A stretch of 64,000 nt of DNA from Carcharhinus longimanus. Lineage: Eukaryota. Numbering within the stretch: position 1 is the first letter of the stretch; each line of letters starts with the position of its first letter. Shown here one piece after another: positions 14,121 to 29,640 of this stretch. The stretch is taken from NCBI GenBank assembly GCA_030264375.1, contig JASCQW010000154.1, forward strand, positions 4,021,371-4,085,370. Direction: 5' to 3'. Made by a program: the position numbers and the translations under genes. The notes under the pieces were generated by a model. The model had not been told where the DNA came from. It ran no database searches and was given only the letters and a program-made list of their open reading frames with translations.

Positions 14121-14137
14121 TGAACTCTCCGTGAACC
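14121..14137 (-). promoter_or_regulatory. DR5 retinoic acid response element, 3' of HoxB1
   Basis: GGTTCA cggag AGTTCA. Matches the Hox1 3' DR5 type in sequence and position. Confidence 0.88.
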
Positions 14138-17153: not shown

Positions 17154-17167
17154 AGGTAAAAAGGTCA
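17154..17167 (+). promoter_or_regulatory. DR2 RARE, 3' of HoxB1 (early neural enhancer)
   Basis: AGGTAA aa AGGTCA, the same as the Hoxb1 3' DR2 as I recall it, about 1.6 kb past the stop codon. Confidence 0.9.
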
Positions 17168-18796
17168 CTCGTACATCCGGAGTTTGCTCTTGCATTCCTC
17201 GCTTTGCCTATGCATTTCTTTTAAAGAGGCTGTCGCTCGTGTTTGTTTAATGTCGTTCACGAACGATATTCAACCTACAAGAAGTGACTGCTTCGTTTGA
17301 GATTCCAGCAGTGCCGAGTACATTGGATTAAATATTTCCTGAAATTACCCATATTTGCAGTCACTGGCTGTTGTTTTGAGCTGTTGATCTTATTTGCATT
17401 TCTTAAAGTTCTTGTATTTTTTCATCAGAAGGGCAACTTCAATGTCCCAAATAGCAGCCATTCAGTGATCTTGTTTTGTGTGTTGTTTTACTTAAGCACC
17501 ACTAGCAGACAAATTATTGACTATAAATTGGAATATTTTGTGGTCAAAGTGTAATAACCACAAGGAACAAAATACAGCTCAAGGTCATTGTATTATCTTT
17601 GATATTAAAGCTCCATCATTGAGCCTCCCATCTTATATAACTTGTATTATTTGAAGAAAGACAGACAACAGGAATGAAAACAGTCAGGAAGCAAATTGTG
17701 TTATAATAAGTAAATTGATTTTTATTGGAATGAGGTAGCTGAACACTAGGGTTGTAATTTGAACGAGGTAAGCATGTTGGAAGGGCTGTTAAACAGGTTG
17801 AGAAACCTAAACTGATAAAACTCAGTAAAACAGCTGAATGACAGACAGCATGATCACCTGAGGTAGAATTACTGCGGTCGCCATGTCTCGTGACATGGGC
17901 GATGATACTTTCTGAAAATGTGCTGCTGTCGCCTTTCCGAGTGAAATCGTACTCTCGACCATCAAAGGCCAGAGGAAATCTTTGTGGGTGCATATTCTCA
18001 CATTACAACACATTTGGCATCAGAGCGGATTCACTCCAAACTTCTTCACAATCGATACCATCAAATACCTGCTCCCACTCTTAAAAACTGAGAAGTCAAA
18101 CATTTTCTGAATTATTATTTTTTTTCTGGAAACGTTTGGTTTGGTTGTAACAGTTTCTGGTTTAGGGACAAACAAACTTCGATAACTCAATAGAAACAAT
18201 ATAAAATGCCAGAAAAGTGAAGAAACGAGATTAGTATTTGTCTGTTAACATTTAATACGCGTCTGCTACACTTTCCACTCAATTTTTTCAAATCTTCATC
18301 TCTTTTCTAAGCCTAACATGTATCTTTTTAATCGATAACCCTGTTACAGTATTAGTAGTGCAATCAAAAGTACCACAGATTTCATAAAACACACTCCACA
18401 CTGCAGAATGACGGTATGTTTTTTTCTCAATTTCCTATATATACAAACAATTCCGTCTGAAATCACGTTTCTTAAATATAAAATAGAGTGAGATCTACAC
18501 CTATGCATAGACAGCAAGGCTGTGTGAAACCAGACTCCCTGAAAAGTTACCAATAACTTAAGGCGGGATGTCAAATCGCAATATGATGTACAGTATTACA
18601 ATCATCGGTATCAAAATGTGGGATGGAATTCTGCCATTGTAAACATGGGAAAAGTGCAATGCTTTTTTTTGGTAATTTCCCTGAGTATAGCACAATAAAG
18701 AAGGGCAAATGACATTAGTAAATTGTAATGAAAGAAATTGAAGTCATATTATCCCCTTTTTATATAAAAAGGTACTGTTATTTTTGATAGCCTGAG

Positions 18797-19140
18797 TTAA
18801 GAGGTCTGGATGTTCTCTGATGTCGACGATCTGGGTGATGTGGATGGAGAGGTAGTTGATGACTTGTCCGATCCGTCCCCAGTTTCCTTTGCAGTGTTAA
18901 CCGCCAAGTGGGGGGCAAATCCCTCTTTTTCCCGCTTCTTCTGCTTCATTCTACGGTTCTGGAACCAGATTTTTACTTGGGTTTCATTCAGCTCCAGCGT
19001 GGCCGCTATCTCCACTCTCCTGGCGCGGGTGAGATACTTGTTAAAATGGAATTCTTTCTCCAACTCTGTTAATTGCTTGGTGGTGAAATTGGTGCGCATT
19101 GTATTGGTCTGGCCACCTAACCCATAATCAGCAATTCTGG
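18797..19140 (-). CDS. hoxb1: HoxB1 exon 2, homeodomain
   Basis: Polypyrimidine/CAG acceptor ending at 19141. Encodes [56 protein letters not shown]; ATLELN is B1-like rather than A1-like (ASLQLN). Spliced length would be 311 aa without the premature stop. Confidence 0.96.
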
Positions 19141-19895
19141 CTGCAAAAAAAACGAAAAGGAATACAATTAGATCGACCCGACATGAACAAGCACCCCTCC
19201 CCCACCCGCCAGCATTAACCAACAACTTCAGCACTTAGTGTTCCGGAACTTGATAGAAGCAAGAGATAAAATACAAGACGAGGCTTTTAGGCTGAATCTA
19301 AACCATCTCGTTGAACGACATGATTCTAAGACATAACAATAAACCTTAATTAAGTCATTGAAAATTCAACGCGAAACACTTGCTCCCTCCTCTTGAGTTT
19401 TTCAAATACATATTGGGTCAACTTATTTTCAGAAAGATGCATCTTAAATAACAAATGAGCAACTTGTATACAGATGTGAAGTTACAGCGAATGGGGTTAC
19501 ATGGACAGACCCTTGCACATCACATTTAAAGCTTCAGTCCCATTTTCCACAAGCAGCAGTCTGTCATTTTCAGATCAGTTTCATAAATTCAGAATCAACC
19601 GAACATTCATCTCTTATTTACTCCAATTGATTCCGGGGAGGGGGAGGGGCGCCAGCAAATGGGTGATTGCAAAACCCATTCGAATATTGTAGGTCTTATT
19701 TTGCAAAGTTCATATAGAGGGCAAAGTATTTTTCATTCACTGCAGACGATTTTGGAAGCAAAAACGTGCTAACGTCAGAGTTATTTTACAATTTGGAAGA
19801 ATTAAATTGTAAAAGTTGGGAAGTGTTTGAATTGAATTTTCGCCAGTTTTTATTTGACTCAGGGTGGAAATGATTCAAACATGTCTCATACTAAC

Positions 19896-20487
19896 CTGTT
19901 TTAGGAGGGTTTCTTTTCACTTTCATCCAGTCAAACGTCTGGCCCGTTGAAGATGAATCAGAGGTGCAGGAAGGTTCCTTTTCCCCTTCTTGAGATGGAG
20001 ACAGATTAGCATAAATCCCATACGCCAAACCCTGTTGCTCTTGGCCGTAGGAATGCTGGTACTGGCCCAGCCCTGTGACTCCACAATAACCTTCTGAAAG
20101 CGGATTGACAGTGGATGCAATATTGCCAGTGTACCCCGAGCTTTGGAAGTATGCCCCATCCGAATCTTGGTTGAAAAAGTAATGGTGATTGTAAACCGGA
20201 TTGCAAGTTTGGGTCGTAGAGTTGTTGGGACCTGAACTGGCGCATGGGTTCCCCAGACTGGAATGATGCGAATAACTGGCTGGCTGGTGCTGATGCTGGA
20301 GTGTATTGTGCGCGTTTCCTCCTACTAAGAATCGTCCATCACCATTGTAATTGTCAACGTTACCTGCACAAGGAGCGAAAGCTGTTATCCCTTGTTCTTA
20401 ATGGTGGTAACCCTTGGATGAGTAGGCGCTCGTCCCACGATTACAAATTGCGTACTCTAAGAAGGAGTTCATCCTGGTATTGTCCAT
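19896..20487 (-). CDS. hoxb1: HoxB1 exon 1 (contains in-frame TAA at codon 30, 20398-20400)
   Basis: Manual translation from ATG at 20487: MDNTRMNSFLEYAICNRGTSAYSSKGYHH*EQGITAFAPC...QTFDWMKVKRNPPKT. Has the paralog-group-1 N-terminus and FDWMK hexapeptide, with a phase-1 GT donor at 19895. Absent from the ORF track because of the stop. Confidence 0.93.
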
Positions 20488-20672
20488 CTGCCAGTGATGG
20501 ACGGTCAACCTGTTCGGGATTCTCCCTGCCCCTGAAACCCCAAGCACTATGTCACCCAGTCAACTTCCTCCATGGCTCGCTGGCAATCAAACGATATCAG
20601 TCAAGAAGACATTCACGTGACCCCGAGTCACCAATGGCAAGGGACCTCCTGATGTTAGTGAACTGTATGAGG

Positions 20673-20737
20673 TGATCCATCACCGCGGTGACATTTACAT
20701 CACAAAAGCTTTCAATCAAAGTTATCCGCATCAATCT
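20673..20737 (-). promoter_or_regulatory. HoxB1 rhombomere-4 autoregulatory element
   Basis: Minus strand, in canonical order: R1 AGATTGATGC (20728-20737), R2 TGATTGAAAG (20709-20718), Sox/Oct CTTTTGTGATGTAAAT (20693-20708), TGTCA Meis/Prep core (20689-20693), R3 TGATGGATCA (20673-20682). Confidence 0.88.
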
Positions 20738-23700
20738 GATAGCAACACTTAAACGTCAAATCGGTCTTCAATAAGGGGGGGGGGGGAGGTGGAGAGAAAG
20801 TTGGAATTATTCAAGATTGTCTTTAAAGTGTTAAAAAGATTTAGTCAAAGCAAGAACTACAGCTGCCTACAACTTGGGCATAATATCTTACAGGAGCACG
20901 GCAGAGCTCAAGTAGGTCATATAGTATATATATTTCAATGTTTTACTTGAATAATACAAATAATAAGAGAAAAACCTTTGCGTTCTTGTCGATTAGAACA
21001 GTTTTTATTTGAAAGAGAATCGCGATAAAAGGTGCATAGCATCTCGCTTAACTTCGTTTGTAAAAGTCTAGACTACATGGAAATTAATCAAACGTCAATG
21101 CCCAAATACAGAAAACATGTGGTGAGGAGGAGTTATAAAATAAAGCATCCGGTTGAAATAAATTGCGATGATCTTTTGGCGATTGCTGTATTGGATTAAA
21201 AGCTATGAGATGTCCATATGATTTTTGGAAATGTAATGTTCCTCATGGGATGTTTGATAAAAGGTCTCATAACCAATGTAATATAGATGAGTATTACCCT
21301 GTTAGAATTGCATGTTGCTTAATTACCGTTTTTTATATCCCAATTTTGTAATTCGTTGGGATCTGCTATAGAGTCATAAAACCATGGGTTAAATTTAGAA
21401 GTGTATTGTAATAAAACATATTCATGTTGTCATTTCTATTCCTTTAGTGAAACTGTATAGGGAATTCAATGAAATGCAAAACATTAAAAATACAATGTCA
21501 ATCCGACAGAATATTCCCCATAATTTGAGAGTTGAACCAAAAATAATGTATATTTAAAAGGCTTATTACGACGCCATGGAAGTGATCGCTTTGCGGAGTA
21601 ATGCATCCAGTCAAATCATCAATAATGTATCTTCAAGAAAATAAGTTAAGTAGACTATATGCTTTTTTATTTAAAAACATTTTTGCAAAAAAAATTGAGG
21701 CATTTATCTTTTATATCCTTAGTCTTACTATAACGTTTACGGGTATCTGTAATAGATGCAGTGCTGACAGCATTACGGGAGAAATCAGTCATCTACTTTC
21801 TCAGTGGGTGCCATACATTACTTCCCAGCACCAGGACTGAAGTTTTGACGATTGTACACGAGAGGGGAGAGGGGGAGGGGGCGTTATTCAGTGGATCATA
21901 AATATTTCCTCGTCTAAAGTTTTGAAATGCATCTTACCTAAGTCAGCAAACTCAAGTCAACTAAAAGTGGCAGAATAGCCTGACNNNNNNNNNNNNNNNN
22001 NNNNNNNNNNNNNNNNNNNNNNNNNNNNNNNNNNNNNNNNNNNNNNNNNNNNNNNNNNNNNNNNNNNNNNNNNNNNNNNNNNNNCAAAGTGAATAGTGAT
22101 CATTCATATTTTGGAGGAATTGAAAGCATCTCGAACAATGTCCTTCACAGTCGAGTTTCGTTAGCTGTCAGGAAATGTACTATTATCTCAACATTTAAGC
22201 ACGTTTAATATGTTTGACATAATAAGATGGTTTTCCCTTTACATTCTGGGTTATCACATATATACACACAGTTTAGTGGTGATTAGCTAGAAGCCCGGGG
22301 CCTACAATTATACTAATTTACTCAGTTAACAGAAAAAGATTAATTGTACAGTATGTGATGTGTCACTGTTGCACCTAGACATTCGAGCTGTTCGTCGTCC
22401 GCCATCTGTTAGGTTCATGGAGAGCTTATATTTTCTACATAATGATACCTTATCACTGTCACCGAATTCAAGAAACATTATTTTTGCCTTCACTCATTCA
22501 GTCGGTGGATCCATATGTCAAAGGCAGCTCTGGCAGCGAGCAATTTAAATGTTTGATGTCAGCTCCATTTTGCTGCTGCTTATTATTGCATTCTTCTCTT
22601 TAGGGAGGTGGAGAAAGGGGGAGAGAAATAAAGAAATAGATGGATATTTTCAGTTACAAAGGGAGGAATGCGAAAGAAAATGAATAGAACGAGGAAANNN
22701 NNNNNNNNNAGGAATAGGGATAGAGAAGGCGAGAGGTACAGATGACAAAGTGTGGAGAGGAAGAAAGAGAATGTGGCACAGAAATGTGTGAAAGAAGGAT
22801 GACAAAAAGAGAATGAAAGCACGATGTGTGCATGAAATGAGCTAGAGAGAGAGCGGAGTTATTTAATGATATAACTATCAATGAGTTTTATTACAACTAG
22901 ACAAAACTCGCAAATGTTACTTTAATTGTCAGAATTCCGAAAGAAACCCTCAATACTGGATGATGGTCTACAAAAACAAAATGAATCTTTGGATTGCAAT
23001 ATAACATATAAGTAACTCAGCAAAGTTTTCTGACAGTAATGTCCCAAGTATTGTCATTTGCTGGAGTTTCACTGAACCGGTGATTTAACACGTGCTGACA
23101 CAGGATTGTGAATGAGCGCCATATATGTTGTTCATCGACCGGCTGCTTTTGCAGGCTGCCAGATGTAGCCAGTATTGACCGAACAGACGACCTCTGGCGA
23201 GTAAAACTTATGGGTTGGCAAAACTGTACAGCCACTATGAAGCAGTATGCTTTGTTAGTGTTCGCTTTAGTTGTTGCATTTCGAGTAGACGTGTGTCCGA
23301 CCATGCATCCACCGCGTAGCCTTACACCTATTATGAAAGACATTTAATTAATCAATTGAAAATAACTGTACTGACACAGATTACTTAATAAACCAGCAAT
23401 TTCCATTTAAGCTGCCTGTAAATGGAAAGAAGGTGGTTGACAGAAATGAATAGTACTTTCAAGCCATTCTGAATTGTTTTATTGATTGCGATAGTTGGGA
23501 AGCAGGGATAATGCATTTGATACCATATTATGCAATATTAGTTACAAGCATTTAGCTGAAGTCAACTAAATACGTTCAATTTTCAGCGGTCCAAGTTCCA
23601 AAATCTTTGATAAAAGCAAAAAAATGTAAAAGCTAACGTGCATTGAAACTAGGCGAATTCTATCCTATCCGGTCATAATTGTAATTATGTGTTCAGAAGC

Positions 23701-28775: not shown

Positions 28776-29640
28776 CTACTGATAATTAAGGTGCTGCAAG
28801 TCTATTGTGCAGACAGCGCTGGTGAAAAAATCAAAACTGTCCTCGGGGATATCCACAGGACTGTCGATGGAATCCTGCAAGCTGGGAGATAATCCATCGG
28901 AGAACGGCAGATAGGAATCCGAAGAAAACATGTTTAAATCTGGCAAGGAGACCAAATCCAGGTGCTCGGAGTTGAGAGTGTCCAGACCAGAGCTACACAT
29001 CTGGCCTGTTGTAAACCCGTTTTCAACACTGGCAGTCAGATAAAAGGGGCTCTTGGCTTTTCCATCGCTGCCGCACACAGTCAGGTCCTGCAGGTTTTGG
29101 AGTTCTTTGCTCAGTGTGTTTTGGTTTTGCTTTTTTGCTTGTTCAGCGCAGTTTTTATATTCTAAATAAGTTCCTGACGCTTCGACAGGTTGGCTATAAG
29201 GCGATGACTCTTCGGCTTTGTCTTCTGGAAGTGAGCTGTTGCAACAGGACCCAATAAACTTGAATGGAAACTAATTTTGCCAATCAAAGTTAAATTTTTT
29301 AGCATTGGGCGGGAGCGATTAAGCCTTAAATTTCATGGTAATTGTGCTAGATTTGCCTGTAACTCANNNNNNNNNNGAAGTGAGCTGTTGGAGTAACTAA
29401 CCTCTCCGTCTTGGTTTTCTTTATACTGTGCCTGCCGCTTATGCTTCATGCGACGATTTTGGAACCAGACTTTAACTTGCCTCTCGGTCAGTTCGAGCAG
29501 GGCCGCGATCTCCACTCTGCGGGGCCTGCACAGATATTTGTTGAAGTGAAACTCTTTCTCTAGTTCCAAGAGCTGCGTATTTGTGTAGGCTGTCCTTAAC
29601 CTCCGAGAGCTGCTGCTGTTATCTTGTTCACCCTGGCCTT
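28776..29640 (-). CDS. hoxb2: HoxB2 exon 2, homeodomain and acidic C-terminus (interrupted at 29242-29376 in this assembly)
   Basis: TAG acceptor ending at 29641. Encodes [58 protein letters not shown] and the C-terminal [19 protein letters not shown]. Removing 149 bp between the two 14-bp repeats restores one frame (359 aa total). Confidence 0.9.

Follow-up and report, generated by a model that had tools for sequence, protein, structure and literature searches.

A TAA at codon 30 of HoxB1 in a Carcharhinus longimanus assembly is probably a false base in an intact gene

The gene described here shares with the HoxB1 of other chondrichthyans, among which Mustelus asterias HoxB1 (XP_078080622.1) is the nearest named protein, a length of 311 residues, two exons, a hexapeptide, a paralogy-group-1 homeodomain and a position beyond B4, B3 and B2 as the 3'-terminal HoxB gene. 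It differs from the Mustelus gene in having TAA at codon 30, as well as five residue changes of its lineage. In humans, homozygous HOXB1 p.Tyr22* is reported with facial paresis in living patients (PMC8028830; PMC10779017). As an early, recessive exon 1 nonsense change it would be the model for a real Ser30 stop, but it is confirmed in families, whereas the shark stop comes from one low-depth data set with similar stops elsewhere. Engineered early-frameshift alleles of zebrafish hoxb1a likewise truncate the protein within the first 20-30 residues, ahead of the homeodomain, and homozygotes form no Mauthner neurons and do not reach adulthood (PMC4061917).

The closest technical counterpart is an oxidative G>T/C>A library artefact, described from deep capture data at <20% allele fraction and with a preference for CCG (PMC3616734). 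The change at HoxB1 codon 30 is of the same class, and sites in titin, a protocadherin and HoxB13 of the same assembly fall into it by column inference, in genes that cannot all be dead. Unlike the artefact as described there, the one proposed here must reach consensus at about 8x and in the context TCA.

HoxB1 gene model and the codon 30 stop

The window, meaning the whole stretch of DNA analysed (64 kb, containing 14 N gaps), covers contig positions 4021371-4085370 (C154). It spans the HoxB cluster's 3' end, with B4, B3, B2 and B1 on the minus strand. The features of HoxB1 are as follows.

19896..20487, minus strand: exon 1 coding sequence, 592 nt, open apart from codon 30
20398..20400, minus strand: TAA stop at codon 30 (TCA, Ser, in relatives; base 20399 is T on the plus strand, G in relatives)
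20256, minus strand: in-frame CTG (codon 78) of exon 1
19935-19924, minus strand: hexapeptide FDWM of exon 1
19141..19895, minus strand: intron, GT...AG, 755 nt, carrying 5 of the 8 window-private base changes
18797..19140, minus strand: exon 2, with an intact homeodomain (about 19108-18929) and a normal terminal TAA

The spliced gene is 936 nt long and encodes 311 residues, its sole internal stop being codon 30, window 20400-20398 when counted from ATG 20487 on the minus strand. The first-pass annotation had described a TAA at this codon in a frame otherwise open through the hexapeptide, splice sites and homeodomain, with the next in-frame Met inside the hexapeptide and the stop about 500 nt above the intron. 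Each of these points was borne out when the sequence was re-read: the next in-frame ATG is codon 188, within FDWM, and 502 nt separate the end of the stop from the exon junction.

The gene is the 3'-most of the HoxB genes and has the two exons, hexapeptide and homeodomain expected of HoxB1. Its sequence is nearest to named HoxB1 proteins and not to HoxA1 or HoxD1, and in a tree of 25 rows, from which 8 unnamed rows were left out, it is sister to M. asterias HoxB1 (98% identity) with 100/99 support. Separate HoxA1 and HoxD1 genes with open reading frames are present on other contigs. Judged by this comparison of sequences, the window gene is the HoxB1 orthologue. The 301 bases surrounding the stop match a single place in the animal's own genome, and a second HoxB1 copy or alternate haplotig was ruled out, as none appeared in the searches of that genome. 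In the neighbouring HoxB2, exon 2 is interrupted at window 29241-29376, where there are a gap of 10 N and a foreign segment of 126 nt; a 14-nt word occurs on both sides, and the frame then resumes to the normal end. This insert looks like a chimeric contig end.

The earlier annotation had also predicted that the transcript would be a target of nonsense-mediated decay (NMD). The stop, at nt 88-90 of the coding sequence, lies 502 nt above the last junction and so beyond the 50-55 nt of exon-junction-complex-dependent NMD. The same stop also falls inside two escape regions derived from human data, the start-proximal one (up to 150 nt) and that of long exons (over 400 nt), as given in PMC13043745, and because it satisfies both rules NMD of the transcript is doubtful.

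If the stop is real, translation might still get past it: TAA could be recoded or read through, a cryptic intron could remove it, or ribosomes could re-initiate at CTG78 or Met188. Re-initiation is described as possible for start-proximal stops (PMC13043745), and the in-frame CTG at 20256, with an A in position -3 and a G in position +4 and 141 nt past the stop, could by its sequence context serve as a start and give a slightly shortened HoxB1 protein. Several points speak against such a bypass. No single recoding fits, since by column the TAA stops of this assembly replace Ser, Glu or Tyr and TAA is also the normal terminator of HoxB1. Of the 9 donor consensus positions, the four GT sites upstream of the stop match 4-5 each (the true donor 8), and no in-frame cryptic-intron rescue was found at the simple consensus cut-off used. 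Six out-of-frame ATGs precede Met188, whose product would be without the Trp of the hexapeptide, and there is no compensating change relative to relatives between 20300 and 20500. We regard bypass as exceedingly improbable.

Codon 30 in related sharks and in run X1

For comparison of the base at 20399, 4 of the 21 listed runs (X1, X2, X5 and X6) were aligned over window 18750-20700, and the mutation spectrum near HoxB1 is that of these 1,951 nt and 4 runs. X2 and X5, two samples of one study, each showed 12 differences from the window, forming an identical set; X6, from another study and at depth 2, showed 16 differences and one gap. All three have G at plus-strand 20399, giving TCA (Ser). Ser is found at this position in 23/23 named chondrichthyan proteins and in 7/8 unnamed members, the remaining one having no coverage of the site, whereas Leu occupies it in 107/120 homologues listed, which are mostly bony vertebrates. 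The sense codon had been proposed in the annotation to be TTA (Leu), with alignment to other shark HoxB1 genes as a check. That alignment showed an intact site elsewhere; the residue is Ser and not Leu, and an origin of the stop from TTA was rejected on the DNA of the relatives and the chondrichthyan proteins alike. A metagenome pattern scan gave 0 matches.

X1 is the only same-organism run among the 21 listed. Its contigs, assembled separately, cover HoxB1 with one 6.3-kb contig at a word depth of 7.69 and have 0 differences from the window in 1,951 nt, TAA included. X1 may be the source of the assembly, and its agreement then gives no independent support; the TAA in separately assembled contigs nonetheless shows that the base goes back to the reads and was not made by a single assembler's consensus alone. 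This largely refutes the reading that the reads say TCA and only the genome assembler slipped, to which we give next to no credence even for a gap-rich assembly with a chimeric join in HoxB2. X1 is known as contigs only, and contigs drop the rarer allele, hence zygosity is not read from it.

Besides the stop, HoxB1 differs from Mustelus at five residues, all of which are common to X2, X5 and X6 and are therefore lineage traits. One of these, Gly98Val, is a G>T change and thus a real change of that class in the lineage. In 13 other sharks these five sites hardly vary, and HoxA13 is identical to that of Mustelus, so on sequence HoxB1 in this lineage appears to show a mild speed-up.

Over the 1,951 nt, 8 base changes are private to the window: five intronic, two synonymous and the stop itself; only 2 of the 8 are G:C>T:A. 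The coding sequence thus holds 2 synonymous and 0 missense private changes besides the stop, whereas neutral evolution of HoxB1 over the entire branch would predict about 4.6 missense changes at the intron rate (P about 0.01). A stop in such a sequence is either very recent, polymorphic or false. An asymmetry between branches (8 vs 4 private changes) gave P 0.39 and was dropped. No private frameshift was found, splice sites are intact, and the following regulatory motifs are present.

20682-20673, minus strand: Pbx-Hox-type site upstream of HoxB1, from a motif search
20670..20740, minus strand: upstream stretch with Pbx-Hox-type sites, from the sequence and the site at 20682, which we take to be the rhombomere-4 autoregulatory element of HoxB1
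17154..17167, plus strand: DR2-like element 3' of HoxB1, a loose match, presumably the 3' DR2 RARE
14121..14137, minus strand: DR5 element 3' of HoxB1, a strict match, presumably the 3' DR5 RARE

HoxB1 therefore does not show the decay of a unitary pseudogene. The first-pass annotation had likewise seen no other decay and had listed a rhombomere-4 motif and two 3' RARE-type motifs as preserved; both statements hold, the element names remaining putative. A further strict DR5 element lies on the minus strand at window 40317-40333, upstream of HoxB3 exon 1.

These comparisons bear on the reading in which the animal carries two null copies of HoxB1, or the gene has newly become a fixed pseudogene of its species, with HoxA1 taking over rhombomere 4. 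Assembly and X1 both read TAA and yielded no TCA contig; X1 need not be the source, as X2 and X5, though two samples, also show identical differences; and the reading frames of HoxA1 and HoxD1 are uninterrupted. People with two copies of p.Tyr22* survive (PMC8028830), and inbreeding is reported for one large shark (PMC9826928). On the other hand, 0/23 genotyped zebrafish adults were homozygous for early frameshifts of hoxb1a and mouse nulls die soon after birth (PMC4061917); the failure of the zebrafish homozygotes to reach adulthood argues against a homozygous wild shark. The site is intact in every named chondrichthyan protein, the regulatory motifs are kept, and the missense deficit leaves room only for a very recent loss. 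Among the titles and abstract openings searched, none describes a shark that has lost HoxB1. Taken with the titin result below, fixed loss is very unlikely.

Stops and severe substitutions elsewhere in the assembly

Codons one G:C>T:A step from a stop (susceptible codons) were counted in several gene sets. Across HoxA, HoxB and HoxD, 33 genes were read, amounting to 9,408 codons (a few of them intronic), with gaps in place of exon 1 of HoxB7 and half of exon 1 of HoxA10; 1 stop was found in 1,370 susceptible codons. Titin, so labelled from its top PDB matches, was read over 270 kb, giving 24,421 Ig/Fn3 domain codons with 2 mid-exon TAA among 3,435 susceptible ones. Both (C32:38631515 and C32:38589752) lie in the first 120 kb (17,832 domain codons, 2,425 susceptible); the next 150 kb (6,589 codons, 1,010 susceptible) held 0 mid-exon stops. 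No titin stop was assigned to the 1,512 transition-susceptible sites. Six further stops within domain matches, three per part, stand at intron edges. To our knowledge titin cannot be null twice over, and this counts against fixed loss as an account of the HoxB1 stop.

The residues lost at the titin and protocadherin stops are taken from paralogous columns and not from orthologues. At one titin stop the column is Glu in 27/81 paralogous domains (GAA>TAA), with Lys (13) as the next one-step route; at the other it is Ser in 10/18 domains of the matching subclass (TCA>TAA), or Thr in 28 and Ser in 20 over all 127 domains. Titin also contains 15 singleton outliers at near-invariant columns, 2 of them clear G:C>T:A changes, 2 ambiguous, 4 of other classes and 7 multi-step, a skew towards G:C>T:A that is not significant. 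These outliers include a Trp>Leu (TTG, G>T) at 38623901, where the column is Trp in 136/139, a Gly>Cys (TGT, G>T) at 38629750 and a Pro>Thr at 38644871.

Cadherin loci (13, chosen for short frames and hence giving no rate) yielded 2 stops. In a non-clustered protocadherin, C109:72762728, TAA stands at a column that is Tyr in 12/17, and 413 open codons follow. In a clustered protocadherin, C109:68889197, TAA is followed by loss of frame; this is probably a real pseudogene and was for that reason left out of the evidence for an artefact. Five extra cadherin loci and 150 kb more of titin gave no new mid-exon stop, and frame breaks at 10-N gaps in titin and protocadherin were set aside as gap sizing.

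Within the Hox clusters, HoxB13 (C154:4210842) differs from Mustelus at only two codons, Ala125Pro and homeodomain Arg5Met. The latter (ATG, a G>T change) falls in a column that is Arg in 15/15 chondrichthyan proteins and in 90/90 readable of 120 listed homologues, and from its sequence class it is probably the same kind of error as the HoxB1 stop. HoxA1 has two differences from Mustelus, at variable sites, and HoxA13 none; a homeodomain Ser in HoxA1 was dropped as another G>T change since Mustelus has it too. A recent loss of HoxB1 in a living ground-shark lineage, coupled with damage to the DNA-binding Arg5 of HoxB13 in the same cluster and with HoxA1 covering rhombomere 4, appears highly improbable.

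Searches of the animal's own genome with single domains gave few true inner stops. For the homeodomain 1/150 matches was flagged, at an exon end on C148, leaving 0/150; for the cadherin domain 0/150 had an inner stop; among 147 GPCR matches 2 were flagged, one at an exon end on C1 and one a mid-exon TGA. The expectation was about 1-2.4. The fn3 search flagged 3/150, all of them titin. The TGA lies at C11422:681-1451 on a 1.9-kb contig, in a GPCR that is presumably bradykinin-receptor-like.

The titin rate amounts to 5.8 per 10,000 susceptible codons (95% interval 0.7-21), and pooling with families that had no counted stop, whose site numbers are estimates, lowers it to 2.4-2.9 per 10,000. At 2.4-5.8 per 10,000 the chance of at least 1 stop among the 1,370 susceptible codons of the 33 Hox genes is 0.28-0.55, and 1 was found. 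The HoxB1 stop is not beyond chance for this assembly.

Library damage as the probable origin of the stop

We consider it highly probable that codon 30 is a false base, an oxidative-type G:C>T:A miscall that reached consensus in a low-depth library. The stops in HoxB1, titin (two) and the protocadherin, with HoxB13 Arg5Met, are together too many for one wild animal, which favours an artefact. The HoxB1 change is G:C>T:A (TCA>TAA), and the class recurs twice among the titin stops, in protocadherin, at HoxB13 Arg5 and at a titin Ig Trp, with the lost residues taken from columns; every such site can be reached from the expected residue by a single G:C>T:A change, the class that guanine oxidation makes in library preparation (PMC3616734). 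Further signs of thin data, namely the word depth of X1, the N gaps of the window and the foreign insert in HoxB2, fit low-depth error.

In the proposed mechanism, oxidized guanine (8-oxoguanine) in the sequencing library would yield G:C>T:A calls, and with depth near eightfold a damaged base would occasionally outvote the true one, with duplicates or overlapping mates possibly lifting the error to a majority. The HoxB1 of the animal would then be an ordinary intact gene of 311 residues. The HoxB1 site does not have the CCG context that such damage prefers; given this and the low allele fraction at which the artefact normally stays, heavy damage and duplication must be assumed. In a depth-8 simulation with assumed parameters, between 0.06 and 20 per 10,000 sites ended with the error in the majority across the range assumed; 0.1-1% damage with 20-40% duplication gave 2-6 per 10,000. 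Also counting against library damage are the clean second stretch of titin (0/1,010), a GPCR set cleaner than the first titin stretch, the homeodomain and cadherin-domain matches free of true inner stops, the lack of significant skew among the titin missense outliers, the real G>T change at Gly98Val and the small share of the class among the private changes. We infer the artefact from contigs and not from reads, and the titin, protocadherin and HoxB13 sites are seen in the assembly only.

The alternative named in the annotation, a base error, is thus supported, and refined to an error at the level of the reads, since the X1 contigs also read TAA. The similar stops in titin and protocadherin speak against the lead reading given there, a very recent null allele. 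In its mildest form that reading would make the animal a heterozygous carrier of a recessive Ser30-to-stop null, as healthy as human carriers of HOXB1 nulls, with both assemblers having kept the mutant branch of a bubble. HOXB1 loss is recessive in humans, with the homozygous p.Tyr22* as a close analogue (PMC8028830), and from the way bubbles are popped the agreement of two assemblies suggests that the A allele had at least about half of the word support. The own genome has no second haplotype contig that would speak against it. Such a carrier would nonetheless leave the titin stops, the protocadherin stop and HoxB13 Arg5Met unexplained, the assembly's own rate suffices for one Hox stop, and a recessive-lethal allele would be expected to be rare; we consider heterozygosity unlikely.

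Read as library damage, the codon 30 stop is not a lost developmental gene, and HoxB1 is probably intact. False G:C>T:A changes appear to occur in this assembly at a rate of a few per 10,000 susceptible codons, which amounts to about one false stop for each set of Hox genes and, if extrapolated, hundreds over the genome. At such a rate, single-base gene-loss calls from this assembly are untrustworthy, and agreement with contigs from the same run is no independent support for a base. Were the stop instead fixed, nature would have provided a shark HoxB1 knockout, a jawed vertebrate that forms hindbrain and facial motor nerve with no HoxB1; redundancy between HoxA1 and HoxB1, and the evolution of the facial motor system and of the Mauthner cell, could then be tested.

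Outside the A, B and D clusters, the short unplaced contigs C16652 and C32666 carry homeoboxes most like groups 8 and 12, which from this resemblance are possibly HoxC remnants.
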